From contig JBBRWS010000003.1 of assembly GCA_038249055.1 (NCBI GenBank), forward strand, positions 24,374-88,373: DNA of 64,000 nt, given 5' to 3'. Under the pieces are notes generated by a model that saw only the letters and a program-made list of their open reading frames with translations, made no database searches and was not told the origin of the DNA. Both the position numbers and the translations under genes were made by a program. Shown piece by piece: positions 9,557 through 53,569 of this stretch (its first letter is position 1; every line of letters begins with the position of its first letter). Origin of the DNA: Minisyncoccia bacterium (GTDB lineage: Bacteria > Patescibacteriota > Minisyncoccia > Phycocordibacterales > UBA9973).

Positions 9557-9605
9557 AGTAATATAATATCATAAAAAATATACTTTTAAAACATTAAATA
9601 AATAA

Positions 9606-9650
9606 ATCAAAACCCAATTAATATAAATTAATTGGGTTTTGATTTATTAT
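9606..9650. terminator. Long hairpin terminator between permease and FN3 surface protein genes
   Basis: ATCAAAACCCAATTAAT-ataa-ATTAATTGGGTTTTGAT then T-rich. Confidence 0.6.
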
Positions 9651-9662
9651 TAATTTTATAAA

Positions 9663-19162: not shown

Positions 19163-19448
19163 ATTATTTTCCCCAGTCTATAATTATAAAAGTAAGACGG
19201 ACTAGGACCCTTATCCCTTAAGGTTTCCATAAAGACTTTCCATTTGGGATAAGGCGTTATATACAGGCGCTACATGCGCAAGAAAACCATTGAGACTACA
19301 ACTTACTTGACTAGTATATAACTAATAATTATATTTGTCAACCCCACACTTATACCTATATCATTATATACTGTAACCTCGGTTTGATTTCTAAGTCATT
19401 ACGATTTATAAACATAGAAATATAAATACATATGGTCACGAAATAAAT

Positions 19449-19472
19449 AAAACCCCATCTTTGGGGTTTTAT
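19449..19472. terminator. Bidirectional hairpin terminator
   Basis: AAAACCCCA-tctt-TGGGGTTTT. Confidence 0.6.
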
Positions 19473-19484
19473 TGTTATAAAAAA

Positions 19485-19625
19485 TTATTTAGTTTTTTTA
19501 CTAATAGACTTTTTTTTGTCAGTTTTATTATCAAGCATAACTTTTTTGACAGCAAGTCTTTTTGCTGTCTTTTTTGAATGCTTTGATTTTATATGAGGAT
19601 GAAGTGAAGTAGCTCTTTTTGCCAT
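19485..19625 (-). CDS. Tiny Lys/Arg-rich basic protein (46 aa), function unknown
   Basis: ATG..TAA frame giving MAKRATSLHPHIKSKHSKKTAKRLAVKKVMLDNKTDKKKSISKKTK; sits between two terminators; below ORF-track size cutoff. Confidence 0.3.
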   Translation of the reverse strand: MAKRATSLHPHIKSKHSKKTAKRLAVKKVMLDNKTDKKKSISKKTK

Positions 19626-19715
19626 ATATATGAAATTGATTAATTAATAAGATATTCTGCATTATACATTAAATGAATAAAAAATCCAATTAATTTAGAT
19701 TAAAAAAAATAAAAT

Positions 19716-19760
19716 ACTCCACATGAGCCAAATGGCAAATGTGGAGTATTTTACTAAAAG
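19716..19760 (-). terminator. Terminator of cold-shock protein gene
   Basis: ATACTCCACAT..ATGTGGAGTAT hairpin followed (minus sense) by T-run. Confidence 0.6.
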
Positions 19761-19770
19761 CTACGCGATA

Positions 19771-19968
19771 TTATGCACGTGATACTTTTGTTGCAGCTGG
19801 TCCTTTTTCAGTGTCAACTAGTTCAAAAGTGACTGTGTCACCTGTTTGAAGTTCGTCAAATGTAACACCAACTAGTTCCTTAGAATGAAAGAAAAGGTCT
19901 TTAGCTTCGCCTTCGCGAGAGATAAATCCAAATCCTTTATCTGTAAGAGTCTTGATTGTTCCTGTCAT
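19771..19968 (-). CDS. csp: Cold-shock protein (CspA family)
   Basis: MTGTIKTLTDKGFGFISREGEAKDLFFH... RNP1/RNP2 motifs. Confidence 0.9.
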   Translation of the reverse strand: MTGTIKTLTDKGFGFISREGEAKDLFFHSKELVGVTFDELQTGDTVTFELVDTEKGPAATKVSRA

Positions 19969-20120
19969 ATGATTTTTTTGATTATTTTTGATTGAAACTT
20001 CGACGTGGTTTCTAGTGCCTTAACACAATTACAGTATAACACACTTTTTAAATAAATACATGTATTAACAACAAAGGATAATTTAATATAAAAATACTTA
20101 TATTTTATAATATAAACTAT

Positions 20121-20390
20121 TTATTTTTTAACCTCCATAAATCTCCTCCATTCATCTGCTACATCTGGTGATAATCTATCTAATTCTGTTAATATTATAT
20201 TTCTAATTTCAGACGATAAAATTTTATCTTTCTCTTCTACAAAATCTATTACCTTACTAGAAACTTCATTTACAATTTTATTTATTTCTTCTGGTTCCAA
20301 CTTTGCATCTTGTGCTGCTCTTGTTATTGATCTTATAATTTTTTTAGTATCAAATGGCATTTTTGTACCATTACTTTTTATAACTTGCAT
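20121..20390 (-). CDS. Stand-alone ATP-cone domain protein
   Basis: MQVIKSNGTKMPFDTKKIIRSITRA... matches ATP-cone (NrdR/NrdD N-terminal regulatory domain) pattern; no zinc ribbon. Confidence 0.6.
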   Translation of the reverse strand: MQVIKSNGTKMPFDTKKIIRSITRAAQDAKLEPEEINKIVNEVSSKVIDFVEEKDKILSSEIRNIILTELDRLSPDVADEWRRFMEVKK

Positions 20391-20718
20391 ATATACAAAA
20401 TTATTTAATTAATATTTATATAAGTTATAATCATAACGACTAATAATGATTATGACAATATATTTGAATAATCAAAAAAACCGAAACCAATAATTGGTTA
20501 CGGGTCTCTAGGACCTCTAGTTCTTTACTATTCACATTATATAATAATACTTAATTTACACAACAAGTTATTCACAATAAATAAATTATGAACATAACAT
20601 GATAATTATTTATGTTAAAATTAATATCAACGCCATGAAAAATAATTTAATTATAATTTTAATAATTTTATTTATAATACTAATAGGTATAGTAGTATTA
20701 TAAATAAAAAATAATAAT

Positions 20719-23595: not shown

Positions 23596-23758
23596 TTTTT
23601 TGGTGGATATAAAATTAACATGAGGTTCAGAAGCATAGTGGTGGTACCGCAAGGGATAGCCAAATGGCTGTACCGTAAGGGAATGTCGTTAAATAGTAGA
23701 ATATTAGTAGGGCTTCTGGATCTCATAAAAATAACCACGTTTATCGCGGTTATTTTTA
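23596..23758 (+). ncRNA. Candidate small structured RNA (unclassified) in 470-bp intergenic region, ending at a hairpin plus T-run
   Basis: GC-richer segment with duplicated GTACCGYAAGGGA (GNRA-type GCAA/GTAA loops), AGCCAAATGGCT hairpin, terminator-like AACCACGTTTATCGCGGTT + TTTTTATTTT; overlapping 90-aa ORF looks spurious. Confidence 0.25.
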
Positions 23759-23779
23759 TTTTAGTTATTATTTTAAAAA

Positions 23780-24040
23780 TTAAAAAAATACTTCTATCGC
23801 TCCTTCTCCCCCATCTTCAAGTTTAGATTGATTATAATGAATATTTCGAGTATTAAGATAATTCCGAACAAAATTGGGTAATACTGGGCCATTCGTACTG
23901 TTATTACCCTTATCTACTATTATCTGAACATGTCTATACTTATTTCCAATAACTAAAGAATTTAAAATAATTTCAGTTTCATTGGTAGTATATCCATGTA
24001 AATCTATTTCTCTTTCGGCATTTTGTTTATATTTATTCAC
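23780..24040 (-). CDS. Smr domain protein
   Basis: EIDLHGYTTNETE...IIVDKG...GPVL pattern of Smr domain. Confidence 0.65.
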   Translation of the reverse strand: MNKYKQNAEREIDLHGYTTNETEIILNSLVIGNKYRHVQIIVDKGNNSTNGPVLPNFVRNYLNTRNIHYNQSKLEDGGEGAIEVFF

Positions 24041-25071: not shown

Positions 25072-26151
25072 TTAATTTTTCAAAATTTCCATAGCCTTTT
25101 CTACACAGCAATTATTATAAATTGCTTTTCTCTCAGGGATAGGAGAAAGAGATGCAATTGAACCCGTAATCAACACAGAAAGTGCTGACAGATTTAAATA
25201 TTCAGCATCTGTAGGTACTTCACCGAGAGTTGCTTTAACTAATTCCAATTTATCAATACAGCACAAAGTGTTCTGTATTTTTGAAAAAGGAATCGGCTCA
25301 CCGCAATACATATCACCTTGTCCAACCCTTAAGTTTTGCAAGAAGTTATCAAGCTCATTTGTACCTGGTACATTTGGAAAGATTGTTTCCCCGCCATTTA
25401 CGTACATAGGTAAAACATATAATTCCTTTTTGGATGCCATTTGCATAAGGCAAGGCAACCTTGAAACGATAGGTTCTGGAACTCCCATCTGAATAGAACG
25501 GTTCTTTTCTGGAAACAAATAAATCATTTTGCTTCCAACCTTAACGTCACTACATAAAGATCTGAGAGTAATTTGATTTTGCATTCTCATTTGTTTAACC
25601 GCACATTCACACCCACTATCCTTCATTTTTTGAATATGTTTCGGTTGAAAAACCGGATACTTATCAAAACCCGAAGTAACAATATTTGCAATTCTAGCGT
25701 ATTCAAACACCTGACTTGCAATAAACGATGGTGTAAAAGAGTTCGGTCGAATTTCAGAGGTTAATTCTTCTGAAATCAAACAATCGAGAGCAGTCGCATG
25801 ATTCATAACAGCCAAAACATTATGACCGCTATTGATCAATTCCAACGCTTTCTGATAATTTTGTGATCCAAAAAGTTTGCACTCTTCAGCTTTTACAAAA
25901 GTACCTATGAGCCATTTTAGAACTGCCTTAGAATCATCACATGGAACATAATGCCCCGTGAAAGTATTAGGTCTCACACTTAATGCATCTAACGATTTCA
26001 ATAGAATTTCTTTTCCTTTTTGGTATCCTTTAATACCGCAATTTGAATATAATTCCACCACTTTTTCTGAAATAAATGACTCCATGTCACTTGGATGATT
26101 ACCCCATGCATTAAACTCAGGAATCAATCCCATTGGTTGAAAATTTTTCAT
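25072..26151 (-). CDS. Soluble glycerol-3-phosphate acyltransferase-like protein (plant plastidial ATS1/GPAT type)
   Basis: FGSQNY...SGHNVLAVMNHATALD (HX4D acyltransferase motif in the context GHNV-L---NH-TEAD of plastidial GPAT) and FPEKNRS (cf. FPEGTRS). Confidence 0.55.
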   Translation of the reverse strand: MKNFQPMGLIPEFNAWGNHPSDMESFISEKVVELYSNCGIKGYQKGKEILLKSLDALSVRPNTFTGHYVPCDDSKAVLKWLIGTFVKAEECKLFGSQNYQKALELINSGHNVLAVMNHATALDCLISEELTSEIRPNSFTPSFIASQVFEYARIANIVTSGFDKYPVFQPKHIQKMKDSGCECAVKQMRMQNQITLRSLCSDVKVGSKMIYLFPEKNRSIQMGVPEPIVSRLPCLMQMASKKELYVLPMYVNGGETIFPNVPGTNELDNFLQNLRVGQGDMYCGEPIPFSKIQNTLCCIDKLELVKATLGEVPTDAEYLNLSALSVLITGSIASLSPIPERKAIYNNCCVEKAMEILKN

Positions 26152-26164
26152 AATTTAGGTTTTA

Positions 26165-26305
26165 GTTTAATTTAAGTTTTGTTTGAATTACCTTACACTC
26201 CATTTAGAAATACAAGGTAATTCAAACAAATATCAATTAATAAAACCATATTTCGAAGAACTACTACCTTTATATAATAGCATATTTATATGTTTTTGTC
26301 AATAT
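26165..26305 (-). promoter_or_regulatory. Conserved promoter + 5' leader hairpin module, copy A (upstream of GPAT-like gene)
   Basis: Minus-sense TTGACA-N17-TATTAT, then 13-bp-stem hairpin TTTGAATTACCTT...AAGGTAATTCAAA about 30 nt before ATG. Confidence 0.5.
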
Positions 26306-26377
26306 AATAAATATTAATATTTTTCTATTGTATACTGATAAATTAAGCTTTTTTACTCATAAATCAACTAAAAAATA

Positions 26378-26414
26378 AAAATAAGGTTAATCACTCTGGA
26401 TTAACCTTATTTTA
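26378..26414 (-). terminator. Terminator of amidase gene
   Basis: AAGGTTAATC-actctg-GATTAACCTT with flanking A/T runs. Confidence 0.6.
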
Positions 26415-26454
26415 AACATTCGGCAGATTTTTATATTACAAAAATCAAAATTAC

Positions 26455-27356: not shown

Positions 27357-28718
27357 CTATTTTTTTATAACCTTAAGAGTTTTTCCTGAGACATTTACAA
27401 AATATATTCCAGGTTTATGAGGCAGACCAATAACTGTTTTACCAGCGTTGCATTGTGTTTTTTGTATGACCCTAGAAGTGGAGTCTATAATAGTTAACAT
27501 TTCACCTTCCTTGGTATTTTCAATGTTTAAAATATCAATACAAGGATTGGGAAAAATTTTTAATTCAGAATTATTAATTTGATTAACCGCGGTATGAATA
27601 TCACCAGTGGTATTAATCAGAACTGATAAACCTGTATAACTATTAACAGAAACAATATCTGGTTTCCCATCATTATTTACGTCCGCGACCACAATTCCAT
27701 CTGGATCATTATTATTAGGTGAATTTGTATTAAATACAGTGACAACCTTATTAATAACTACCTGTACACGACCACTTGATATCATGACAATATCATCATA
27801 GCCGTCAGAATTAAGATCACCAACGGAAAGTGCCCCGGGGTTAACCTGATTATCAATATCAAAAGAGATATCAGAGTTAGCTCCCCATACACCAATTTTT
27901 CCAGTAACTGAATAAACTAATTCCTTTCTATTATCTGAACTAATATTTCCAACTACAATTGAAGATGGATTATTTTTATCCGGAATAATGTTTAGATTGG
28001 TCAACATTTCAATGCTTCTATCTTTTCTAAATTTATAAACAGAAACATAATTAAAACCGCCTTGACCATTCATTTTTATTACCGAATTAAAACTATCAGA
28101 CCCGAGCTTTGCAATCTCAATATCATCATACCCTGATTGTGTCGAGGGATAATAATAAGGTAAGGATAGACAACCGATACTATCACAATAATATGCAACA
28201 ATATTGGGTTGATTCCATAGAGAAACTACAATGTCATTTATTCCGTCATCGTTAATATCGCCAATTTTTACAGCATCTACTGTTTTCCCGGCATAAATAT
28301 TAATAGGATGTCCTAATTTACCAACAGTATTTTGATGATAAATAATAATCTCATCACCAGCACCTAATACAACATCACTAAGTCCATCATTATTAATATC
28401 GCCTGAGCTTATAGTGCTCACATCATATTTTTGATAATAAGGATAAACAGCTGATAGCTGTAGGGTATTGCTTGAATCCTGAAGATAAATAAATAATTTA
28501 AAATTAGTATTTACACTTGGATTACTAGCATAAGAACCGGTCGCAACAGCGACGTCTATCTTACCATCGTTATTAAAATCACCTGCCGTCAGGTGATCAG
28601 CTAATGTTCCATTTATGGGATAATTTTTTACCCCTGAAAATGTAACTTGCCCGCAAGCAATGTTACCGATAGAAAGAATACCAAATACAACAACTAGAGT
28701 AATCAGAATTTGTTTCAT
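27357..28718 (-). CDS. Secreted FG-GAP/VCBS-repeat beta-propeller protein with C-terminal T9SS-type (Por secretion tail-like) sorting domain, paralog 1
   Basis: Signal peptide; repeated DxNxDGxxD(I/V)V motifs (DFNNDGKIDVAV, DINNDGLSDVV, DINDDGINDIV...); C-terminus KIFPNPCIDILNIEN...IIDSTSRVI...GIYFVNVSGKTLKVIKK. Confidence 0.7.
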   Translation of the reverse strand: MKQILITLVVVFGILSIGNIACGQVTFSGVKNYPINGTLADHLTAGDFNNDGKIDVAVATGSYASNPSVNTNFKLFIYLQDSSNTLQLSAVYPYYQKYDVSTISSGDINNDGLSDVVLGAGDEIIIYHQNTVGKLGHPINIYAGKTVDAVKIGDINDDGINDIVVSLWNQPNIVAYYCDSIGCLSLPYYYPSTQSGYDDIEIAKLGSDSFNSVIKMNGQGGFNYVSVYKFRKDRSIEMLTNLNIIPDKNNPSSIVVGNISSDNRKELVYSVTGKIGVWGANSDISFDIDNQVNPGALSVGDLNSDGYDDIVMISSGRVQVVINKVVTVFNTNSPNNNDPDGIVVADVNNDGKPDIVSVNSYTGLSVLINTTGDIHTAVNQINNSELKIFPNPCIDILNIENTKEGEMLTIIDSTSRVIQKTQCNAGKTVIGLPHKPGIYFVNVSGKTLKVIKK

Positions 28719-28734
28719 AATTTTTATTATTAAT

Positions 28735-28880
28735 TTTTAGTTTATATTTATTTGAATTACTTTAAATTTCATATAGAAATACAAAGTAATTCAAATAAAT
28801 TACTGTCTAAAAATTATTTTATCAAAGAGCTAAGACTAACTTATATAGTAGCATAAATATAGAGATTTGTCAATCTATAT
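28735..28880 (-). promoter_or_regulatory. Conserved promoter + 5' leader hairpin module, copy B
   Basis: Minus-sense TTGACA-N17-TACTAT then TTTGAATTACTTT...AAAGTAATTCAAA hairpin ~33 nt before ATG. Confidence 0.5.
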
Positions 28881-28889
28881 TCTAATTTC

Positions 28890-28934
28890 ATAAAAAAATA
28901 AACCGTTATTCCAAGCAAATGGGATAACGGTTTA
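28890..28934 (-). terminator. Terminator of FG-GAP paralog 2
   Basis: AAACCGTTAT...ATAACGGTTT hairpin. Confidence 0.6.
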
Positions 28935-28952
28935 TCAAATAAATTTTCAAAG

Positions 28953-30335
28953 CTAATTCTTTACAACTTTGAATGTTTTACCCGATATATTTACAAAATA
29001 AATTCCAGGATAAAAACCTTCCATACTAACGACTGTTTTATCGTAATCAGTTTTAATCTTCTTTATTACTCTGGAAGTTGAGTCATAAATAGTCAAGATA
29101 TCCTTTCCGTTTGTATTATTAATGTTTACAATATTTTTACAAGGGTTAGGAAATACATTAAGCTCAGTGTCATTAATTTGATTTGTACCTGTAATAATAG
29201 TGGTATTGAGCATAATTGTTAAACCTGTATTACCATTACATGAAACAATGTCTAGTTTCCCATCACTATTTACATCCGTAATAGCTATCCCATCAGGTGA
29301 ATTAATATCTGGTGAATTCGTTGAGAATTTATATATCACCTTATTAACAATCACTTGCACAAAATTATTACTAATCATTACAATTTCATCGATTCCGTCG
29401 GAGTTTAAGTCTCCAGCAGCCAAGGCCCCACTATTATATGGAGTCTGTAAATCAAATGATATTTCAGGAGATGCTCCCCATACATTTATCATTCCATTTA
29501 CTGAATAAATAAGTTCATTCCTTTTGTCGGAAGTAACATTACCCATAACAATAGAGACGGGCATATTATTAACACTATTTGAAATGAGATCTAAATTGGT
29601 TTCAGTATTCAGACTTCTGTCTTTATTAAAATGATAAACAGTAAAAGATAATCTTCCTTTACTGTAGAGTCCTCCTTGACCATACATTTTAATTACAGAA
29701 TTAAAATTATCATCTCCAAGTCGAGCAATCTCAATATCACCATACAATGATGCTCCTGAAAAATACCAAACTGGATAAGCTAATTTGCCCATACTGTCAC
29801 CATAAAAGGCGGCAATGTTTGACTGTCTCCGAAGAGTAATAATGATATCGTTTATTCCATCATCATTTATGTCCCCAATTTTTAGAGCATCAGGTATTGC
29901 ACCACAATAGGTATAAACTGGTGAATTAAATTTACCGTTTACATTTTGGTAAAAAATACCAATTTCTGCTTCTACGGCAATGACAATATCACAGAGACCA
30001 TCATTATTCACGTCACCTGCACCTATTGCCCCCACGCCGTCGGTAGCATGACCATAAGTATAACTATCTGAAAGAATCAAACTGTTGTTCTTATCTTGTA
30101 GGTATACCATTACTTTATAGTTAGTATTGAGACCAGAATCAGTCGTATACGAACTTGTTGCTACAGCAACGTCCTTTTTACCATCATTATTAAAATCACC
30201 TGTTGTAAGGTGATTTGCTAATGTTCCCAAAATTGGGAAATTAGTAAAGGGAGAAAATGTAACTTGCCCGCAAGCGATGTTACTAAACAAAATAAAACCA
30301 AACACAACAAAAAAATTCACTACTAAATTTTTCAT
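28953..30335 (-). CDS. Secreted FG-GAP/VCBS-repeat protein with T9SS-type C-terminal domain, paralog 2
   Basis: Same architecture as 27357-28718, tandem paralog; C-terminus LNVFPNPCKNIVNINN...IYDSTSRVI...GIYFVNISGKTFKVVKN. Confidence 0.7.
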   Translation of the reverse strand: MKNLVVNFFVVFGFILFSNIACGQVTFSPFTNFPILGTLANHLTTGDFNNDGKKDVAVATSSYTTDSGLNTNYKVMVYLQDKNNSLILSDSYTYGHATDGVGAIGAGDVNNDGLCDIVIAVEAEIGIFYQNVNGKFNSPVYTYCGAIPDALKIGDINDDGINDIIITLRRQSNIAAFYGDSMGKLAYPVWYFSGASLYGDIEIARLGDDNFNSVIKMYGQGGLYSKGRLSFTVYHFNKDRSLNTETNLDLISNSVNNMPVSIVMGNVTSDKRNELIYSVNGMINVWGASPEISFDLQTPYNSGALAAGDLNSDGIDEIVMISNNFVQVIVNKVIYKFSTNSPDINSPDGIAITDVNSDGKLDIVSCNGNTGLTIMLNTTIITGTNQINDTELNVFPNPCKNIVNINNTNGKDILTIYDSTSRVIKKIKTDYDKTVVSMEGFYPGIYFVNISGKTFKVVKN

Positions 30336-30349
30336 GATTTCGTTTTTTA

Positions 30350-30490
30350 AATGGTTAGATTATTTGAATTACTTTAAATTCCATATAGAAATACAAAGTA
30401 ATTCAAATAAGTCACGACTTAAAAAAACTTTATCAAAGAACTGATACTGCCTAATAGTCTGACATAAATGCATGGCTTTGTCAATTTACA
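30350..30490 (-). promoter_or_regulatory. Conserved promoter + 5' leader hairpin module, copy C
   Basis: Minus-sense TTGACA then TTTGAATTACTTT...AAAGTAATTCAAA hairpin ~28 nt before ATG. Confidence 0.5.
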
Positions 30491-30606
30491 ATCAGATAAC
30501 TAAAAGGAAACGTGTCTAAGTACATTTCCAATTATATTTTTTATTCAAATAACTAACCACATATAAACAATCGAATAATTGTTTAAATTTTGATATAATC
30601 AACTAT

Positions 30607-44670: not shown

Positions 44671-45134
44671 ATAGAAAATTTATATATTACAGAATAATCA
44701 AAAGTTATTTTATTTAAATCAATAGATTGAGTTTCTATTTCAGGACTTACGTCACCAAACCCTCTAATAAAACCATCTGCAACTTTTTTGAACACAACCC
44801 AACCAACGGATTCAGTTCCTTCTGATTGAAATGTGTAATCTGCTAATAAAATTCCATTTTTATATGTCCCTTTCAAAGTACCGGTTGAACTATCCTTTTC
44901 AAAATTCTTAATATCAAGTGTTCCTGTAAAAGATTCACCTTGTTCAGAAAGAATTGTAAGAGTATATACATCGTTTGCTAAATGTCCAATATAAGTACCT
45001 ATAATAGTTTCTTTTAAAACCACAGAAGAATCATCACTTAAAGATCCACTTTTTGGTTTTTGATAATAAATATAAGCACTGGCAATAATCAAAGCTATTA
45101 TTCCTAATATAATTATTTTTAAAAAGTTTTTCAT
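44667..45134 (-). CDS. Hypothetical secreted protein
   Basis: 155 aa, signal peptide; overlaps downstream gene by 4 nt (ATGA). Confidence 0.5.
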   Translation of the reverse strand: MKNFLKIIILGIIALIIASAYIYYQKPKSGSLSDDSSVVLKETIIGTYIGHLANDVYTLTILSEQGESFTGTLDIKNFEKDSSTGTLKGTYKNGILLADYTFQSEGTESVGWVVFKKVADGFIRGFGDVSPEIETQSIDLNKITFDYSVIYKFSI

Positions 45135-45277
45135 GATTTAATTCTATCATAATTTAAAACTTATATTAAGATATAAAATATCCATTGCAAAATATACCTG
45201 CCCGCCCTCTGGCAGAGTTTAAAATAGCTGTTCTACTTCATAGAACGAGATAGAAACATTTTCGAATAAAGTAAAAT

Positions 45278-45310
45278 AAAAAAGACCCACAATAAAGTGG
45301 GTCTTTTTTA
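45278..45310. terminator. Bidirectional terminator
   Basis: AAAAAGACCCAC-aataaa-GTGGGTCTTTTTT. Confidence 0.65.
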
Positions 45311-45325
45311 TTAAATAACTTCAGT

Positions 45326-46036
45326 TTAGTTATTATCATCAATTGCATCAAGGCTATCATCTTTTTCATCCTTATCATCATCTTTTCCATCATTATCATG
45401 ATCTAAAGATTTTGAATCACTTACATCAGGAATATTATCATTATCATCATCTTTATCTTGAGAATCAATAAGACCATCATTATCATGATCTTCAGATTTT
45501 GAATCTTTACTATCCTCTATACCATCATTGTCATCATCAATATCCAAATCATCTGAAATGTCATCGTTATCATGATCTTTAGATTTTGAATCTTTACTAT
45601 CCTCTATATTATCATTATCGTCATCTTTATCTTGATCATCTGAAATACCATCCTTATCACTATCTACTCTAGATACCCATTTACGAGCAATATTTGCATC
45701 AATTACAAAACTACCATCTTGAGTGATATTTCCTGATATTCCTACAAAATCACCACTTTGTATATCAGTGATAACCCGATTTAAACTTATAATATTGGTT
45801 GTAGCAGAAATCTTTACTGTCCAACTTCCACCCCAACTTTTAACAACTATTGAGTCCGTACCTACAGACTCAACAAAGCCACGCATAAGCACATTACCAC
45901 TAGGATTAATATTTAGAATCATAGGACTCTTAATAACCTCGGGAGATACTACATTTGTTTCTGCAAATACCTTAAACCCAAATATACTTAAAAAAACAAA
46001 CACAATCACGATAATAAATTTTTTATTATTTTTCAT
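45326..46036 (-). CDS. Secreted protein with Asp-rich thrombospondin type 3-like calcium-binding repeats
   Basis: Signal peptide; C-terminal half made of DKDDDNDNIED / DIDDDNDGIEDSKD / DHDNDG repeats. Confidence 0.55.
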   Translation of the reverse strand: MKNNKKFIIVIVFVFLSIFGFKVFAETNVVSPEVIKSPMILNINPSGNVLMRGFVESVGTDSIVVKSWGGSWTVKISATTNIISLNRVITDIQSGDFVGISGNITQDGSFVIDANIARKWVSRVDSDKDGISDDQDKDDDNDNIEDSKDSKSKDHDNDDISDDLDIDDDNDGIEDSKDSKSEDHDNDGLIDSQDKDDDNDNIPDVSDSKSLDHDNDGKDDDKDEKDDSLDAIDDNN

Positions 46037-46278
46037 TTTTATATTTTGTTATTAATAATAATTTAGATTTCATGGACTAATATAGATTAGTAATGAAGTC
46101 TAAAAAACAACCTACTTAATTATAGACTTCTTGAGCCTTGAGTTCTTCGTATTTTAATTATAACAAATTAAATAAAGATAGATAGGGATAGATTGGATAT
46201 AACTCTTATAAAAAGATTTCAAAACAACTTACTCCTCGTTTGAAACAAAAATAGAAATCTTTTTAAATAATATAAAAT

Positions 46279-46731
46279 TTACTTAATTTCTTCTTTTAAA
46301 ACTTTAATTGCTTCTTCGAGAATATTAATGTCTTTTATCTTCTCAGATATTGATAATCTAGAGTATTGAGTTTTTTGATCATTGGATGCATATTCATCAT
46401 TTCTATCAAGCCAATTATCATGAATTAAATTTAACACATCATTAATTTTTCCAATCGCAACTTCAGCTGAAAGATGATTTTCTTCCTTCCAATCGTTAGG
46501 TAATTTATCATAAGGAGTATTCGCAATGTCTATGTCAGAAATACCTTCATGTTTTTCAATCCATTCTTTATCTTTAACTTTTTTCATTCTAGGAGTAAAT
46601 GTTTTTGTTTCTGGATCGAATCTTTCTTTGCGCCAGTTTTCATGCATCAATCTTGCTAATGTCTCAACTTCCTGAACTTTCTTTTCTTCTAATTGTTTTG
46701 ATCTATTATTAAAAATTAATTGTTCATACAT
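46279..46731 (-). CDS. Hypothetical protein
   Basis: 150 aa, charged, no TM. Confidence 0.5.
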   Translation of the reverse strand: MYEQLIFNNRSKQLEEKKVQEVETLARLMHENWRKERFDPETKTFTPRMKKVKDKEWIEKHEGISDIDIANTPYDKLPNDWKEENHLSAEVAIGKINDVLNLIHDNWLDRNDEYASNDQKTQYSRLSISEKIKDINILEEAIKVLKEEIK

Positions 46732-46819
46732 TTTATTATTATATCACAAACTATAATTATTAAACTGGCCCAAAAATTAACCTTATTTAAATATAATTTT
46801 GAAATTATAAATAAATCAA

Positions 46820-47191
46820 TTAATAATTAAAACTCATCCAGAAGAAAAAGACGCCGATAGTAAATATAACTACTCCCCAGAGTATCTGCTGACCTTTAAA
46901 CATTTGGGCTTTTTTATTAACACGATTAGGAAACCCAATTTTTTCAATTCCTTTAAATAAGGTAACCCAGCCTAAAATAGTTATTGCAACTCGCCAATCG
47001 GTAACCCAAATATTATGAGCAACAACAGTGACTAATCCTAATAAAAAAGTAATATAACCAGTAGATATAGTAATAGCTCTGTCTTCGGTATATTCTATAA
47101 TCCTACCTAATAATTTTGCACCAATAGACATTGCGCCAAGAATCATAAAAAGACTGCCCCAAAACTTTGCTAAAAAAATTGTTATTTCCAT
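46820..47191 (-). CDS. Small membrane protein
   Basis: 123 aa, 4 TM. Confidence 0.5.
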   Translation of the reverse strand: MEITIFLAKFWGSLFMILGAMSIGAKLLGRIIEYTEDRAITISTGYITFLLGLVTVVAHNIWVTDWRVAITILGWVTLFKGIEKIGFPNRVNKKAQMFKGQQILWGVVIFTIGVFFFWMSFNY

Positions 47192-47290
47192 GACATAAAA
47201 ATTATATCAAATTATTAATATATAAGGTATATCTTTATGCCTCCAAACCTTGGGTGAAGTAAGAAACTTTTTGAAAATATTTAGTCATAA

Positions 47291-48514
47291 TTAATGTAGT
47301 TTAGGAAATGAATTCCCTCTTTTTCTTCCACTACCTTTAAGAGAGGAAGCATGTTTCAGCGAATTTTGTCCAAATTTTTCTCTTATCTTATCTCCCACTT
47401 CTTCTATAATGTTTTTAGTTTCAGATTTATCAAATATGCCAAATAAATCCCTAGGTATATTTTCTCTTCTTAATAAATTTCGCAAAGTAATCCCAGTTGA
47501 ACGAATTTTTTCATCATTTTGTAACAGCTTATATAAAATAGGTTCAATAATATTAAGCATCTCACTTGGATTATTAGTATATAAAGGTAAATGACTCTCA
47601 CCAACACGGTGAATAAAATTAGAATTTTTTACAAAAAATGAAACTGAATTAGTCACCAGATTAAGTTCTCTTGCTCTTTCACATGCTCTTTCTATATTTT
47701 CTGAAAGTTCAGCAAATATTATTTTTGAATTGCAAGATGATGGCTTAAAAGTTGAAGTTGATTGAATTGATTTTTGATCTCTTCTGTCATGATTGGAATC
47801 AATTTCTAATAAAGATTTGCCTGAAAGTTCTTGTTTAAGATTAAATAATGGCAAGGGAAAATATTTTTCTATTGGTTCATCTGGATAGTGAACAAGATCA
47901 TAAGCGGTTTTCATTCCCATATCGTGCAGTCGTGGAACTGTCTGTTTGCCAATACCCCAAATGTCATCTATTTTTGTTTTCTTAAGTGCATTCTCTTCGT
48001 CCATTTCGTTTAAAAGTAAAACCATACCATCGGGTTTATCAAGCTTTGAAGCGGTCTTCGCGAGTGCTTTTGTTCTCCCAAGTCCAAAAGAATATGTTAC
48101 ACCAATTGTATTTTTAATTTCATCTTTGATGTCACTCACAAGTTTTTCTGGACTACCAGCATATTTTATATCTGAAGGTTTAACAATCATAAAACATTCA
48201 TCTATACTATATACTTCAACTTGCTCAAGGTACGATAAAAAAATATTATAAACATCATTGGAAATTTTATTATATAAATCAAAATGATGAGAAAGAATAA
48301 TAACTTTAGGGAATTGTTTTTTAATTTGGAATATTGGCATACCACGAGTAACACCAAGTTTTTTAGCTTCATAACTCATGGCTACAGCTATTCCCCTATC
48401 TTCTCCCACAACAACAGGCATCCCTTTATATTCAGGATGCTTCGATACTTCACACGAAACAAAGAAAGAATCTCCATCTGCATGAAGAAATAAATTGTCG
48501 GAATTATCAGACAT
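47291..48514 (-). CDS. dinB: Y-family DNA polymerase (DNA polymerase IV-like)
   Basis: LHADGDSFFVSCEV, SIDECF catalytic motifs. Confidence 0.8.
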   Translation of the reverse strand: MSDNSDNLFLHADGDSFFVSCEVSKHPEYKGMPVVVGEDRGIAVAMSYEAKKLGVTRGMPIFQIKKQFPKVIILSHHFDLYNKISNDVYNIFLSYLEQVEVYSIDECFMIVKPSDIKYAGSPEKLVSDIKDEIKNTIGVTYSFGLGRTKALAKTASKLDKPDGMVLLLNEMDEENALKKTKIDDIWGIGKQTVPRLHDMGMKTAYDLVHYPDEPIEKYFPLPLFNLKQELSGKSLLEIDSNHDRRDQKSIQSTSTFKPSSCNSKIIFAELSENIERACERARELNLVTNSVSFFVKNSNFIHRVGESHLPLYTNNPSEMLNIIEPILYKLLQNDEKIRSTGITLRNLLRRENIPRDLFGIFDKSETKNIIEEVGDKIREKFGQNSLKHASSLKGSGRKRGNSFPKLH

Positions 48515-48574
48515 TTACATATTGTATCAAAAATATCGGAATTGGGTTCATAGAGATAACCCATTATTATCCTT

Positions 48575-49069
48575 CTATATATTTAATTCTTTTTCGTTTA
48601 TTTTATATAAAACTTTTAGTAGTAAATTTTTAAGAACGGTGATAAATACAGCGATTACACTTGAAATAATAATTATAATAAGTCCAATTGCCACTACCCC
48701 AGGAGCATCATCTTTATCTGCTACATAGAATATATATGGCATACCAATTATATACAATAAACTTATTACTATTGCACAATATCTTATTTTAATTAAAGCT
48801 TTTATGGATAATTCTGAAAAAGCTTTATTTTTTTCAATGTAGTTCAAAACATTTAATATTTGGAATAATGCAATAAAAAAAGGAATCCCTGGTATATATA
48901 AACCCAATAAAAGTGGATCATATCCTCCCATTTCAACTGAACCAATAATACGAGGTAATGCTAAAATATATAAAGATAAAAATGCAAGTCCGATTAAAAA
49001 AACAACCCCTTTTAATATAAAGGTTGACATTGATTTCATAAAAAATTTATATATTTTAGCTTTAATCAT
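48575..49069 (-). CDS. Hypothetical membrane protein
   Basis: 164 aa, 4 TM. Confidence 0.5.
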   Translation of the reverse strand: MIKAKIYKFFMKSMSTFILKGVVFLIGLAFLSLYILALPRIIGSVEMGGYDPLLLGLYIPGIPFFIALFQILNVLNYIEKNKAFSELSIKALIKIRYCAIVISLLYIIGMPYIFYVADKDDAPGVVAIGLIIIIISSVIAVFITVLKNLLLKVLYKINEKELNI

Positions 49070-49514
49070 TGTCTAATTTTACCACAAAATTATTGTAAAA
49101 AGAGTAAAATAGACCTCCCTAGATAGGATTGGTCGCTTTCATCAATTTTAACTGCTCGTCTGTTTGAAACGAAGTGGAAACTTTTTTTAGAAAAATTAAA
49201 TAAAATCTATTATTTAATTTCTTCTTTCCCCCTCCAATTTATTTCAAAAGAAATAGAATATTTATTAGGAATTTTCCACTTAGAAAATCTAAAACAAAGA
49301 AACTGAAATTTATTTTCATTAATCCTCCCAAAGCCAAACCTATTTAAAGTAAGTTCTATGTCTATAACCATTTAACAAGTATAGCAAAGGTTCCAAAGTA
49401 TATAAAGGTGTCAAAAATACTATTATTAAATAATAGTTAAATTATGTGATCTAAAATTGGAGTAATGTTCTAATTATTATTTTTAATAAATAATAAAAGT
49501 ACCATTGTTTAGAA

Positions 49515-49724
49515 CTAGAATTTGTCGTTTAGATATTTACTGGCGATACTCAATGCAAATGAAGGCAGTATTACAAAAACAGTTGCAAATAAGAGCCTAA
49601 TAAATATTTGGCTTATAGTCGAATCTGGTGCGTCTGGTCCAGAACCAGTTATTACAACTAAAATACCAATAATTCCAAAAACAATGGATGAATAAATAAA
49701 AATTCGCGTTGCTATTTTTTGCAT
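49515..49724 (-). CDS. Small membrane protein
   Basis: 69 aa, 2 TM. Confidence 0.35.
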   Translation of the reverse strand: MQKIATRIFIYSSIVFGIIGILVVITGSGPDAPDSTISQIFIRLLFATVFVILPSFALSIASKYLNDKF

Positions 49725-49885
49725 AGTAAGATTATATTACTAATAAAACAAAAAGTCACCTTAATATAGGGTAACTTTTTTGGATTCAAGACTGGGAAGA
49801 TATGGAAACTTTATTAAGAAAAAAATTATAATATAAAACAGGCCAATTTTATCATTGGCCTGTTTTTCAAAAAATACATTTTTGA

Positions 49886-50248
49886 TCACCTTGGAACAGT
49901 GCAACTGTCGTCAAATTTGTTAATACCAGAAGAACCTCCAAATTCATAAGTGTACCAACAGGCAAAAAGCGCCTTCCGGTCTGACCAATAGTTACCTGAA
50001 TACATCTTAGATTGAAAACATTTAATTTTCCAATGTGGGTCAGTTTTTACCTCTGATGGATTTTCAACTAATGTTGTTACTAATTCAAGACTATAAATTT
50101 TGAGACCAAACCAATCTTTGTATGACCAAATTTGTTTAAGTTTTTCAAAACTATCAACTCCATATAAAATTACATTTTCTCTTAGGGGTAAAAATAATTC
50201 TTCCCCATTTAAAAATTTTAATTTAATTACTTCAGTTTCTTGTTTCAT
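49886..50248 (-). CDS. Hypothetical protein
   Basis: 120 aa. Confidence 0.45.
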   Translation of the reverse strand: MKQETEVIKLKFLNGEELFLPLRENVILYGVDSFEKLKQIWSYKDWFGLKIYSLELVTTLVENPSEVKTDPHWKIKCFQSKMYSGNYWSDRKALFACWYTYEFGGSSGINKFDDSCTVPR

Positions 50249-50417
50249 TGTATTTATTTTTAACTGTAAGTACTATTATTACTTTTTTCTTCACATTACT
50301 TCTAATCAGAAATGATGTCAATACAACAAAATAACCCTAATATGATTAAGGTTAAAATTGATGAATTTTAACTTGGAAAGAAGTGAGAACTTTGACAGAG
50401 AAGATAAATGAGTAATA

Positions 50418-51203
50418 TTAATCGATTTTCGTAGATATCTGGATATTATTGGTCTTTATTTTTTCTATTACAGCTCTAAATAAATCTTGAAGTCTACCAT
50501 TATAACGCAAGTTATTTTCATCTGGATTCTCAGGATTTAAATAATAAATAGGGTCAACAATACTAGCCACTTGTTTTTCAATATCCTCATCCATTTTGAC
50601 CTTATCTCTACTTAGAATACCTGTACGAACGAGTAAAGTTCTACCAAGTAAATCCATCAATCTTTCCTTATACCATTGGTGTGAAGTAGAGATGGATTCG
50701 TCTATTTCTGTTCCCTCTCTTAGTCTAGCTGTTGCTTCATGACTAAGTACTTCGTGAGTAATTCTTTCCTCTGTGCTACGTTCCTGTAAACGATCTTCGG
50801 GAATCTTAAAAAATATTATGCCATCTTTTTCTAATGAACCACCCCCTGTACCATAAACAGTGGGCGCTAGAATAAAATTTTTAGAAGGTTTAAATCCATA
50901 AAGTTCTTGTATGGCTCCTGTCATTTTTTTGAATATCTTATTCCAAGTATTATTTAATTCCAGAGCATAAGATTCATAGTTGTTTTGATTTTTTAAATAA
51001 TCCTGCTGAACAGCTTTTTCAACATCTTCTCTTTTGTAATTTTTAGGGTCAATACTTATAGGAAGATTTAAATAATCTGAATATCCTAATTTTTCATATC
51101 TTTCATAATTTTTTAAATACCATAAAATACGATTAATCTCATTATTAATAATATCTTCTTTTTTTGAAATTACTTCAATTTTTATTCCTCTATTTTGTTC
51201 CAT
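50418..51203 (-). CDS. Hypothetical protein
   Basis: 261 aa. Confidence 0.5.
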   Translation of the reverse strand: MEQNRGIKIEVISKKEDIINNEINRILWYLKNYERYEKLGYSDYLNLPISIDPKNYKREDVEKAVQQDYLKNQNNYESYALELNNTWNKIFKKMTGAIQELYGFKPSKNFILAPTVYGTGGGSLEKDGIIFFKIPEDRLQERSTEERITHEVLSHEATARLREGTEIDESISTSHQWYKERLMDLLGRTLLVRTGILSRDKVKMDEDIEKQVASIVDPIYYLNPENPDENNLRYNGRLQDLFRAVIEKIKTNNIQISTKID

Positions 51204-51473
51204 CTTTTTTATAAGCTTATCTTCTCCTTCTATTGGCTATTCAACATATTTACTTGATTCTAAATTAGTTTCTATATTATTTAATTTATTACTCCTAATT
51301 TGCTCAAGAATATCTTCTTCTAAATAATTTTCTTTCATACAATTATTCTACCATAGGTTCAAATTTCTATTAATGTAAACAAATAACTCGTATGAAAATA
51401 TAAGTCAAATTGCCTTTGATCCGAACTTATGGTGTAGTAGAAACTTTTTTAAGAAATATTAAATAAAAAATAA

Positions 51474-51920
51474 TTATTTTTCTAAAATATCTTTTAGTTT
51501 AAATACAAAAGCTTTTTCCCAAAACTTCATTGAATACCAACTTAGAAGAGGCCCCGCTATCAGTCTTAGCCATTTATTGTGAATATCAACTTCATAAACA
51601 TAATTAATCCTCGTTCCCTCTTCTATTTCTTCCATTAAAAATTCTTCATGACCAGATATACCTAATTTTGAATTCTCATTATCAGAAATGTATCCCGTCC
51701 TCGGAATAATCTCTGTTTTCATTTTTACTGGAAACACCATGCCGAAAGACTTTACTTTTGCATCAATTTCTAATTTATTACCATCTTTCTTAGCAATAAC
51801 CAATGACTCTGCAACAGTTGTAAAATTGTTTGGCATATTTTCAAAATCACTAATAATTTTAAAAACTTGATCAATAGGAGCTTTAATAACCCAAGAACCT
51901 TTTAAGTTAATATGTTTCAT
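51474..51920 (-). CDS. SRPBCC (Bet v1/polyketide cyclase-like) superfamily protein
   Basis: 148 aa; SWVIKAPIDQVFKIISDFENMPNNF N-terminus typical of SRPBCC/Polyketide_cyc2. Confidence 0.45.
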   Translation of the reverse strand: MKHINLKGSWVIKAPIDQVFKIISDFENMPNNFTTVAESLVIAKKDGNKLEIDAKVKSFGMVFPVKMKTEIIPRTGYISDNENSKLGISGHEEFLMEEIEEGTRINYVYEVDIHNKWLRLIAGPLLSWYSMKFWEKAFVFKLKDILEK

Positions 51921-52178
51921 TATTTTATTATACCAAAAAAATATAATTCACTTGCTCTGTGAGTATTGTATCTTCCCCTACCTAAGGAGGCGAATGTGCT
52001 CATTCGCATGTTCAGTATCTTTTTTTATTTCGGTTATCATCAAAAAAAACGAAAAGATTTCAATCTCCTCTCGGTCCGACTCTCTAATCGACTACACACA
52101 AGACAACCAAGTAGGTCATTTTACTAAATGAACAATCAGCTCGCTCTGAATTTAATCAACGTAATTTTGACTTACTAA

Positions 52179-52766
52179 TTACCCTTTTGGAAATATCTTT
52201 TCCAAAGAATCTCCTGGTTCTATTTCATATTTTTCTTTTTGCTCAGTTTCTTCTTTTTCACCTATAAACTTGATTATTGCTCCCATTCTCTTTTCCGCAA
52301 TTTCAGAATATTCGTCAAAAATTCTTTTTGCATCTACTGGAAGAAGTTGTTTTTTATTTAAAAAGCCATTATATGTTTCTTTAAATTTCTTGTCATTAAT
52401 ATCTTGGTAATTGTAATGGATATCAACATCTTGCCCATTGATTTCTCCTTTTATAATATTATCCTCCCATCCATAACCATATTCCTCTTTCTTAAAAGCT
52501 AAGTCGGAATTTTTCATTTTTTCAAAATATTTTTGTTCTTCACTTTCTGCCCCCTTTCCTTCAGATGCTTTTCTAGCTTCAAGTTCAAGTTCAGCATCTA
52601 TTTTTATAATATCTTCTTTGGTTATATCTTTATTTTTAAACGAAGAAATTTCCACTGTTCTAAGAAAATCTATAACTTTCTCTTTTAATGAAGGATTTAT
52701 AATACCTTCAACTCTCTTTTCATAGTTTTTTTGTGAATTAATTTGTTCTGGGTTAAATTTTTCCAT
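52179..52766 (-). CDS. Hypothetical acidic protein
   Basis: 195 aa. Confidence 0.5.
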   Translation of the reverse strand: MEKFNPEQINSQKNYEKRVEGIINPSLKEKVIDFLRTVEISSFKNKDITKEDIIKIDAELELEARKASEGKGAESEEQKYFEKMKNSDLAFKKEEYGYGWEDNIIKGEINGQDVDIHYNYQDINDKKFKETYNGFLNKKQLLPVDAKRIFDEYSEIAEKRMGAIIKFIGEKEETEQKEKYEIEPGDSLEKIFPKG

Positions 52767-52974
52767 AAATAATTATAAAATTAATAATAATTAATTATAA
52801 CTATTAAATACCTAACAAACAAGATTATTCTTGATACTCCGGACTTGGGACGAAGTGGAAACATTTATATTAAATAATAAAAATTAGCAATTAATTTTAA
52901 TTCTTAAAAAAGTTAAAAATTGTAATGGTAGTGATAAAGTATTATAATTAAATGGTATTAATAAATTTATATTT

Positions 52975-53466
52975 ATGATAATTAACGATACTAATAACAA
53001 TACGGAGATAGAAAGATTTAAACGATTAGTGGACATTTCTAGTGATTGGGTTTGGGAAACTGATGATAAGGGTGTTTTCACTTATTCAAGTGGGGGTGCT
53101 GAGAGAATTTTAGGATACAGTACTGGTGAACTTGTCGGGAAAAATTATAAAAACTTTTTAAGAAAATCAGAGTTGAATGAAAATCATGACGGTTTTACAA
53201 AAGAATTGCATACCCATATAAAAAAAGATGGCACAGATTGTATAATGGAATCTGTAAAAATAGCTAAATTAAACGAGAATGGTTTGGTCGTTGGGTATAT
53301 GGGAGTTGACCACGATATTACAGAAAAAGTAACTACACTTAAAAAACTTGAAGAACAATTTTCTGAAATAGAAAAAAGAAATAAGTTTTTAATAGATAGA
53401 GAATTAAAGATGATAGAACTCAAAAAAGAGAACGAGGAGCTTAAAAAGAAATTAGAAAACAAATAA
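52975..53466 (+). CDS. PAS domain protein with C-terminal coiled coil
   Basis: DISSDWVWETDDKGVFTYSSGGAERILGYSTGELVGKNY PAS core. Confidence 0.6.
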   Translation: MIINDTNNNTEIERFKRLVDISSDWVWETDDKGVFTYSSGGAERILGYSTGELVGKNYKNFLRKSELNENHDGFTKELHTHIKKDGTDCIMESVKIAKLNENGLVVGYMGVDHDITEKVTTLKKLEEQFSEIEKRNKFLIDRELKMIELKKENEELKKKLENK

Positions 53467-53569
53467 AAAGGCCATTATAAAATATGGTGAAAAATATGCT
53501 CCGTGGGTTGGACGCAGTTCGAACTTGTATAATTGAACAAAAGTTATTTGAAATGAAGGCAATATAACT

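Follow-up and report, generated by a model that had tools for sequence, protein, structure and literature searches.

Within a 64-kb stretch of bacterial DNA (the whole stretch analyzed, hereafter the window), the gaps between genes carry a repeated module of ~65 nt, up to ~100 nt in relatives, which we rate as a lineage-specific intergenic terminator-associated element. Read in the sense of the neighboring genes, it begins with an A-run (type a) or a −10-like hexamer (type b), continues with a 28-nt imperfect inverted repeat around a conserved, asymmetric, C-rich center (the box; GTTTCCACTT-CGTCCC-AAGTTCGGAGC in the window) and an A/T linker (CAAAATTTT), and ends, at a fixed position, with a short hairpin of variable sequence and a T-run. 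After another 0–40 nt comes the −10 box of the next gene, whose promoter is largely leaderless. We propose, at a probability of roughly 0.4, that the module is an RNA-level punctuation or insulator cassette that joins a conserved recognition box to a weak intrinsic terminator.

Copies of the module in the window

An earlier note on this DNA had quoted five copies of an intergenic repeat, all in a single orientation and upstream of minus-strand genes. Every one of them is present at its coordinates, and a weight matrix and a covariance model both confirmed the repeat as genuine. The window total is nine copies plus one weak one. Four had been missed (m4, m5, the degenerate m8 and the variant m9b, with left-arm first bases at 49809, 50390, 45257 and 53524), as had the weak copy (Table 1). 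All 9–10 copies are on the minus strand, intergenic and confined to 45.2–53.5 kb; the remaining 56 kb of the window contains none.

How far the motif exceeds a shuffled background, on which the note's claim turned, depended on the length considered. The 11-mer core alone was in mild excess (27 matches with up to 2 mismatches in the window vs 15.6 ± 3.9 in shuffles), whereas the 28-nt motif was far above chance: the copies scored 16.8–36 bits with the weight matrix, and shuffled windows yielded 0–3 matches of at least 12 bits. With the covariance model, five window copies had E-values of 2e-6 to 0.04, all on the minus strand. The motif is longer than the quoted core and reaches ...CCCAAGT-N1-3-GGAG, the gene-sense consensus in the window being AAAAA-GTTTCCACTT-CGTCCC-AAGT(N1-3)GGAG(C). 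The "T-run and AATATT" that the note had placed after the core correspond, in gene sense, to an A-run and AT-rich sequence preceding the box. Its two prefix sub-types proved to be degenerate variants; the true split, visible only across genomes, is between left arms GTTTCCACTT and TTCGAACAT. The note had also argued that the copies are accompanied by no convincing hairpin and so do not look like intrinsic terminators. We found instead that the motif itself is an imperfect inverted repeat and that, in gene sense, each good copy has a hairpin with a T-run 30–60 nt downstream.

Hairpin, T-run and pairing in the box

We searched the 75 nt past the box of 38 modules for a hairpin ending in a T-run. 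Such a hairpin with a folding free energy (dG) of −4 kcal/mol or lower was found in 15 of 38 modules; random windows drawn from those loci had one in 5% of cases, and the antisense strand in 4 of 38. An at least weak one followed 29 of the 38. Its placement is fixed in most copies (start at +29 to +37, end at +53 to +61), and the stem sequences vary from copy to copy with pairing kept. Seven stems (L041x, m4, L041_6985, L020, L056_4232, m5 and L079_1532) contain G·U pairs, which are A·C mismatches on the opposite strand, and among the stems read we saw none of the opposite kind, with G·U only on the other strand. This one-sidedness indicates gene-sense RNA. The downstream part thus appears to behave as a gene-sense RNA hairpin and, at best, as a weak AT-rich intrinsic terminator. 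In the manner of bidirectional terminators, the A-tract of the linker can pair with the U-tract. Five window copies are located at the 3' end of a gene, as a terminator would be, and so are copies in L002, L004, L056 and L079.

Pairing within the box was tested on two alignments, one ungapped with 32 copies and one model-based with 41. In the arms, 72% of cells are paired vs 67–68% in shuffles, with 0–1 of 500 shuffles reaching the observed value; 21–29 cells are changed on both sides, and the true register performs better than slid registers. Much of this signal comes from the split between types a and b. Arm pairs include CGAACTT/AAGTTCG (L041 9742), CGAACAT/ATGTTCG (L002 571), CGAATAT/ATATTCG (L056 4232) and CTCAAATTT/AAGTTTGGAG (L041 6985). 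Judged from these alignments, pairing in the conserved box is only modestly supported. The center and left arm are conserved beyond the need of pairing, and this excess points to sequence-specific recognition.

Insertions of variable length inside the box occur in three copies (L002 4769, L002 5437 and L079 5169). A GC-rich mini-hairpin (CCCGCCTGCAACGATGTAGCAACTTCGGGCAGGG) stands within modules at differing points (L079 210–245 and 5183–5216, with a relative in L002 at ~5459–5490) and resembles an independent small insertion element in its behavior.

Relatives of the module in metagenomes

Scanning metagenomes with AAANGTTTCCACTTCNNCCCA gave matches at 51 loci, the majority being chance matches in GC-rich coding DNA. 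True copies were found in only 7–8 AT-rich contigs among these loci, with the same layout in L018, L020, L032, L041, L056/L057 and perhaps L042 (27–35% G+C). A hidden Markov model and the covariance model added further copies to these loci and located others in L068 and L079, two loci reached via homologues of a 69-aa membrane protein encoded in the window. On the Nomurabacteria and Paceibacteria contigs, modules are likewise clustered and co-oriented with genes: we counted four in 2 kb in L004 (Paceibacteria), four in L041, at least six in L002, four in L056 and at least seven in L079, which has a module ahead of almost each gene in its first 5.3 kb, and one ahead of dinB. The copies nearest in likeness are those within the same genome; L041 8177, for example, hardly differs from L041 8827 along 70 nt.

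Across genomes, the box consists of left arm GTTTCCACTT or TTCGAACAT, then CNTCCC, then AAGTTCGGAGC. The left arms fall into two discrete classes, AAAAAG-GTTTCCACTT in type a and (−10-like hexamer)-N2-5-TTCGAACAT in type b. Common to both are the center C-N-T-C-C-C, the right arm A(A/T)GTTCGGAG(C) and the linker (C/A)AAAATTTT, followed by the hairpin and T-run. In many copies from outside the window, the T-run is followed by (G)GAG(G/T)TTAGTAG-AAGTTCGAACC(T/C)A, which places AAGTTCGAAC 59–60 nt past the right arm and directly ahead of the next gene's −10 or −35. In a post hoc analysis of type b, a TATAAT-like hexamer (at least 5/6; TATAAT, TATACT, TACAAT, TATATT and CATAAT were seen) ended 2–5 nt before the left arm in 8 of 14 copies, against a background of 28% at any of 17 positions and ~7% for four positions. 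This suggests that type-b modules may be able to be transcribed on their own.

No known family was recognized. At the gathering threshold, Rfam 15 matched only a LOOT RNA at 59.2 kb in the window and no module; at E-values up to 5–10 it gave zero matches over the modules in the window, L018 and L032. In viral contigs, 11 of 11 exact matches were chance matches in GC-rich coding DNA.

Gene setting and genomic contexts

The window has a G+C content of 29% and encodes a DinB-type polymerase (47291–48514, minus strand; Pfam IMS) with 73–86% identical relatives in metagenome-assembled genomes labeled Candidatus Nomurabacteria, Paceibacteria and, in one case, Saccharibacteria. These relatives indicate that the host is a candidate-phyla-radiation (CPR; Patescibacteria) bacterium. 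The modules lie within a series of short genes at 40–58 kb, monocistronic for the most part and many of them hypothetical, whose products include SRPBCC, DUF2975, DinB, DUF5666, CYTH, PAS, DUF4238 and HNH proteins; a type I restriction system adjoins this run on one side.

Promoters in the window have a −10 box at a fixed place. A TATAAT-like hexamer (at least 5/6), mostly of the form TGnTATAAT, ends exactly 6 nt before the ATG in 17 of 56 window genes (for example before the ATGs at 47191, 48514, 49069, 49724, 51338 and 51920), and a Shine-Dalgarno match was found in 0 of 56. This combination implies that mRNAs in the window are largely leaderless, the promoter abutting the start codon, and leaderless expression appears to be the norm in the host organism. 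Among the very few Shine-Dalgarno-like sites of the window is a GGGAGG (49300–49330, minus strand) 6 nt before an internal ATG of a 53-aa open reading frame (ORF; 49210–49371); the 26-aa peptide starting there is possibly the true product.

In the window, five copies start 19–29 nt past the upstream stop with no other terminator in between, three start 45–76 nt past it and one (m7) stands between divergent genes; the next ATG lies 76–223 nt beyond. The 53.5-kb copy, m9b, is between convergent genes, with no co-oriented gene after the module. Over all genomes, four contexts can be distinguished. Modules are found 19–36 nt past stop codons with no other terminator; 15–25 nt past a strong independent terminator (L004 1326, 1843 and 3271; L018; L041 9742 and 6985; L079 1532; window 49809); between divergent genes (window 52862, two copies in L032, L079 3219); and between convergent genes (L079 2581–2660, which at 41.5 bits is among the best-scoring, and the 53.5-kb copy). 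This variety of contexts argues for a self-contained unit. The genes downstream are mutually unrelated (RsgA, PG-binding, SRPBCC, CYTH and membrane proteins); dinB, too, follows a module, both in the window and in L002 and L079.

The module as a proposed transcription punctuation signal

We infer that the module is transcribed, whether at the end of the preceding gene's transcript or from a −10 of its own, and that the weak AT-rich hairpin and U-run would end the transcript right ahead of the next promoter. Such termination would shield the leaderless promoters from upstream read-through. In a genome without ribosome-binding sites, read-through would bury the next start codon within a transcript and occlude the promoter, so that each short gene would need a signal to stop transcription just ahead of its promoter. 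The box, which lies 8 nt upstream of the terminator, could be the recognition element for a trans-acting factor that aids or relieves termination, or alternatively the functional head of a released short RNA.

In layout, the module most closely resembles the leader cassettes of lambda nut (boxA/boxB) and of LoaP (Bacillus antibiotic operons), which likewise combine, in this order, an optional promoter, a conserved hairpin-like box and loop, a short linker, an intrinsic terminator and a gene, with several copies per genome in gene orientation. Unlike in these systems, each downstream gene here has its own promoter past the terminator, the box pairs poorly, copies also occur at convergent gene ends, and no N-like protein or NusG paralogue was identified here.

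Several observations weigh against punctuation. Copies behind a good terminator are made redundant as terminators, and clustering in one region is odd for a general punctuation signal. The stems are AT-rich, many with a dG above −4, and a standard terminator scan (at least three G-C pairs) passed a single motif-following hairpin in the window, that of m8 (45197–45216). Unpaired cells make up 28% of the arms, which is weak for a structured RNA. RNAalifold on whole modules returned no consensus structure, since MAFFT did not align the variable hairpins in register. The strand of the box could not be assigned from its folding energy, as sense and antisense were equal (−5.2 kcal/mol each). In type a, the left arm and center are near-invariant and the 5 nt before GGAG vary uncompensated, a pattern more suggestive of a sequence motif than of a stem. 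Type-a copies are also preceded merely by TAAAAA- or TATAAA-like strings without the final T, and so have no convincing promoter of their own.

Alternative explanations

The earlier note had offered a regulator site and a repeat element as explanations, and both are still live options; its interpretation was borne out in part, as the orientation-specific intergenic repeat stood and its independence from terminators fell. As a regulator site, the box would be a DNA operator, an imperfect palindrome bound by a transcription factor that co-regulates the island promoters, maybe in a stress or SOS-like regulon. We consider this unlikely, even though an arm symmetry of ~72% is typical of operators, dinB sits in the cluster, the −10 lies 60–67 nt from the box start in 7 of 11 cases, and relatives have a near-perfect palindrome, (T)AGAAGTTCGAACC(T)A, 59–60 nt past the box beside the next gene's −10 or −35. 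CIRCE/HrcA and Gram-positive LexA operators are similarly built from inverted repeats of 7–9 bp around a spacer, and the type-b half-sites CGAACAT/ATGTTCG, here split by 6 bp, match those of the B. subtilis SOS box. The Gram-positive LexA box, however, is CGAAC-N4-GTTCG. We rejected that identity because GAAC and GTTC are N10 apart in type b, the sites lie 60–100 nt upstream of the −10 and not over the promoter, and most associated genes are not repair genes. Nor do they form a chaperone set; the downstream genes are functionally unrelated. In most operators the arms are better conserved than the center, and the opposite holds here. An operator would also leave unexplained the fixed coupling to a hairpin and T-run, the well-conserved copies between convergent genes with no promoter downstream, and a box-to-−10 distance that varies between 61 and 100 nt in the window. 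No recognized DNA-binding domain was found in the 58 window ORFs scanned, and the S24/LexA signature GDSM was found in no protein resembling LexA. Somewhat more doubtful still are sibling small RNAs of ~55–65 nt, standalone or derived from 3' untranslated regions, that would act in trans with the C-rich box as seed or protein-binding head. They would account for the −10-like hexamer upstream of type b, for a terminator at a fixed distance (the hairpin and U-run being the RNA's own), for a box kept while flanks diverge, even ahead of a gene 90% identical between genomes, and for copies in all genomic contexts, including convergent gaps. LhrC1-5, RsaE/RoxS and 6C also share a C-rich (U)CCC apical sequence, a Rho-independent terminator and sibling copies close together. 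Those RNAs mask Shine-Dalgarno sequences, of which the organism has none for a C-rich loop to mask, and no complementary GGGACG-type sites occur near gene starts in the 64 kb, which led us to reject a small RNA that masks ribosome-binding sites. Unlike those RNAs, the modules are more numerous, each abuts a gene promoter, and no credible −10 with a last-position T precedes the type-a copies, among them every good copy of the window. Maintaining at least nine copies so close together would burden a reduced genome, and every copy is on the strand of the neighboring genes.

A selfish or passively spreading repeat (REP-, MITE- or Correia-like, or a "mobile promoter" cassette), bringing a terminator and parts of a promoter with it and tolerated without a dedicated function, is in our view improbable. 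It fits the greatest likeness of copies within a genome (some arm and loop variants are particular to L079, others to L002), the variation among relatives in copy number and in the genes between copies, and the GC-rich mini-hairpin inserted in several copies. In relatives, a left end TTCGAAC(A/T)TC has its reverse complement at the right end, as terminal inverted repeats would; this complement lies ~90 nt from the left end, and window copies lack the right-hand box, bar a weak one at m6. The genomic habit of the module most resembles REP/BIME elements of enterobacteria and Correia elements of Neisseria, which are short, imperfectly palindromic, extragenic, often right past stops and in concerted evolution within a genome. 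They can stabilize or terminate upstream transcripts, and Correia elements supply promoter parts. The module differs from them in its single gene-relative orientation, asymmetric conserved center, fixed separate terminator hairpin and clustering in one island instead of dispersal. The flanks show no target-site duplication, and the window yielded neither a transposase nor a RAYT or an integrase; the one orientation and the lack of a RAYT there led us to reject REP/BIME identity. Co-orientation with genes is strict, placement relative to stops and promoters is fixed, and the box is conserved across genomes whose DinB is only 73–86% identical and whose neutral intergenic DNA is unalignable. We find it very hard to accept a site-specific recombination site, in which inverted arms of ~9 bp would surround an asymmetric 6-bp crossover core and shuffle promoter-bearing cassettes in a variable island. 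The lox/dif-like layout of ~9-bp arms flanking the conserved asymmetric center CGTCCC would match, as would the direct orientation of all copies between units of one or two genes, the two discrete left-arm classes with one common right arm, and the interval between the SRPBCC and 69-aa genes, which holds two extra genes and three modules in the window, measures 53 nt in L002 and contains other genes in L004. Integron attC arrays are comparable, with co-oriented, small, unrelated genes split by an imperfect inverted repeat and a variable cassette content. We rejected an attC identity (R'' RYYYAAC...R' GTTRRRY, 57–141 bp, intI nearby): neither box is present in the copies, which are much shorter and adjoin genes with their own promoters, and there is no recombinase among the 58 ORFs scanned in the 64 kb. 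Moreover, the arms vary at positions adjoining the core, the modules are not inherited with either neighbor gene, and the coupling to terminator and promoter would be unexplained. If recombination were nevertheless true, the island would be an integron-like cassette platform in ultra-small CPR genomes, unrelated to attC/IntI. Barely credible is a promoter for an alternative sigma factor, which the earlier note had raised, with GTTTCC (or TTCGAA) as −35 and GGAGCA as −10, 16 nt apart. Bipartite invariant blocks at that distance, in fixed orientation upstream of genes, would suit it. The 16-nt "spacer" is, however, the most conserved part, several window copies lack GGAG, and well-conserved copies lie between convergent genes. 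Initiation would fall ~7 nt before the hairpin and T-run, and the downstream genes each own a TGnTATAAT box 6 nt before the ATG.

Further identities were examined and rejected. A tRNA or tRNA-like origin is contradicted by ARAGORN, which found 0 tRNA genes in the window, and by TTCGAA boxes that form no T-arm. A plus-strand sigma-54 promoter was considered for the likeness of TGGGACG to TGGCACG, but neither the −12 GC nor any plus-strand gene is present. The clustered, one-orientation, intergenic-only distribution led us to reject a DnaA box (TTTCCAC vs TTATCCACA), a parS half-site and a DNA uptake sequence, as did the conservation beyond those cores. MraZ-type direct repeats (TGGGA-N5-TGGAA, plus strand) number just two, at many unrelated genes. 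Finally, the mini-ORF ATG-TTT-CCA-CTT-CGT-CCC of some type-a copies has its ATG in only ~1/4 of them, and conservation shows no codon periodicity.

Individual copies and neighboring genes

Table 1. Module copies and promoter boxes in the window, with sequences in gene sense (5' to 3')
Feature	Position	Strand	Support	Sequence	Setting
m7, best copy	52812..52868	(-)	weight matrix 36-46 bits; covariance model 36.6 bits, E=1.8e-6	ATAAAT-GTTTCCACTT-CGTCCC-AAGTCCGGAG-TAT, then hairpin CAAGaataatCTTG + TTTGTT	between divergent genes, 96 nt before ATG 52766
m6	51376..51450	(-)	weight matrix; E=0.004	AAAAAA-GTTTCTACTACACCATAAGTTCGGATCA, then weak hairpin + T-rich tail	29 nt past SRPBCC gene stop, 106 nt ahead of ATG 51338
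m5	50324..50396	(-)	covariance model 32.8 bits, E=2e-5	GTTCTCACTT-CTTTCC-AAGTT..., linker CAATTTT, hairpin AACCTTAATcatATTAGGGTT (dG -7.3 at +36..+59) + ATTTTG	then TTGACA-17-TAATGT promoter
m4	49742..49815	(-)	covariance model 30.2 bits	GTTTCCATAT-CTTCCC-AGTCTTGAATCC, hairpin AAAAAGTTACC..GGTGACTTTTT (dG -9.8)	then GTGACT-17-TATAAT-6-ATG of 69-aa membrane protein gene
Weak degenerate type-b-like copy	49437..49476	(-)	covariance model 19.1 bits, E=0.11; membership uncertain	TTAGAACAT-TACTCC-AATTTTAGAT	
m3	49100..49188	(-)	weight matrix; covariance model 26.6 bits	AAAAAAA-GTTTCCACTT-CGTTTC-AAACAGACGAGC, hairpin GACCaatCCtatctaGGgaGGTC (dG -7.2) + TATTTTACTCTTTTT	then TGGTAAAAT-6-ATG of DUF2975 gene, then dinB
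m2	47200..47273	(-)	weight matrix; covariance model 20.7 bits, E=0.04	CAAAAA-GTTTCTTACTT-CACCC-AAGGTTTGGAGGC, weak downstream hairpin	23 nt past dinB stop; then TGATATAAT-N9-ATG
m1, AT-degenerate, 1-nt insertion	46208..46265	(-)	below model thresholds; kept for layout and position	GATTTCTATTT-TTGTTTC-AAACGAGGAG; GTTTCAAAC..GTTTTGAAATC pairing, then TTTTTAT	19 nt past stop codon
m8	45190..45263	(-)	weight matrix 16.8 bits; terminator-like hairpin flagged by scan	GAAAAT-GTTTCTATCT-CGTTCT-ATGAAGTAGAAC, linker AGCTATTTTAAAC, hairpin CTGCCagagggcgGGCAG + TATATTTTG	
m9b, variant	53455..53530	(-)	weight matrix 20.2 bits	AAGTTCGAACTG-CGTCC-AACCCACGGAGCA, then hairpin CCATattttataATGG + CCTTTTT	
TGnTATAAT-type −10 boxes of module-separated gene units	45106..52790	(-)			end ~6 nt before ATG

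Two window copies have counterparts elsewhere: the L004 copy at 2395 occupies the place orthologous to m6, downstream of the same SRPBCC gene, and a ...CCCACGGAGCC variant resembling m9b is present in L041.

The gene for the 69-aa two-helix membrane protein (49515–49724, minus strand) has a module ahead of it in the window, L004, L041 and L056. An obligatory link was rejected, as no module precedes it in L002, L068, L069 and L079. Its DNA is ~90% identical between the window and L004, and the homology ends at its −10 box; the modules ahead of it have the motif pattern alone in common and are otherwise unalignable. The protein is extraordinarily conserved: it has 1357 homologues in Paceibacteria and Nomurabacteria metagenomes, with an identity of at least 81% for each of the 120 best listed. 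A Pfam scan assigned it to no family.

Beside the modules, the minus-strand frame at 50418–51338 has 307 codons with a single in-frame TAG at codon 34, followed by an ATG-started ORF of 261 aa; it is a recent pseudogene or a sequencing error, or else its stop codon is read through or recoded. Upstream of the SRPBCC gene lies a 258-nt, GC-richer intergenic stretch (51921–52178, minus strand). It resembles L041 ~9560–9700 (minus strand; …GATGATAACCGAAA…GGGAAGATAC…CACAGAGCAA(G/A)TG), which is downstream of a module and beside a convergent gene. Rfam gave no match to the window stretch, a candidate non-coding RNA or leader.

Other elements in the window

Outside the module cluster, the LOOT RNA (RF03000) match spans 59184–59320 on the minus strand, between a hypothetical gene and type I restriction-modification genes, and at 62.4 bits is above the gathering score. 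Three intergenic regions (26152–26454, 28719–28952 and 30336–30606) share a hairpin of ~45 nt (TTTGAATTAC(C/T)TT…AA(G/A)GTAATTCAAA) and further similarity. Two of them are upstream of paralogous FG-GAP/Por-tail genes (27357–28718 and 28953–30335), and the third precedes a 359-aa gene without a Pfam match (25072–26151); together they look like a separate family of conserved leaders. On the plus strand, ~23640–23790 looks structured, with a long stem that closes it (ATGAGGTTCAGAAGC / GCTTCTGGATCTCAT), the repeat GTACCG(C/T)AAGGGA in its interior and a strong terminator. This region, to which Rfam gave no match, is a candidate non-coding RNA. A long "intergenic" stretch of 1.5 kb (19163–20718), without an ORF of at least 100 aa, surrounds a short ORF that by reading of the sequence is cold-shock-protein-like (MTGTIKTLTDKGFGFISREGEAKDLFFH…; ~19950–20150, minus strand), along with other small ORFs.

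Implications for candidate-phyla-radiation bacteria

CPR bacteria have tiny genomes with few recognizable regulators and no cultured, genetically tractable models, and almost nothing is known of how they delimit and control transcription. Should the module be merely a tolerated repeat, its interest would be modest. If a factor reads the box, the module would belong to a lineage-specific (anti)termination or insulation system and would give a handle on regulation in these organisms; annotators would also gain a marker of transcription-unit boundaries and of a variable accessory-gene island.

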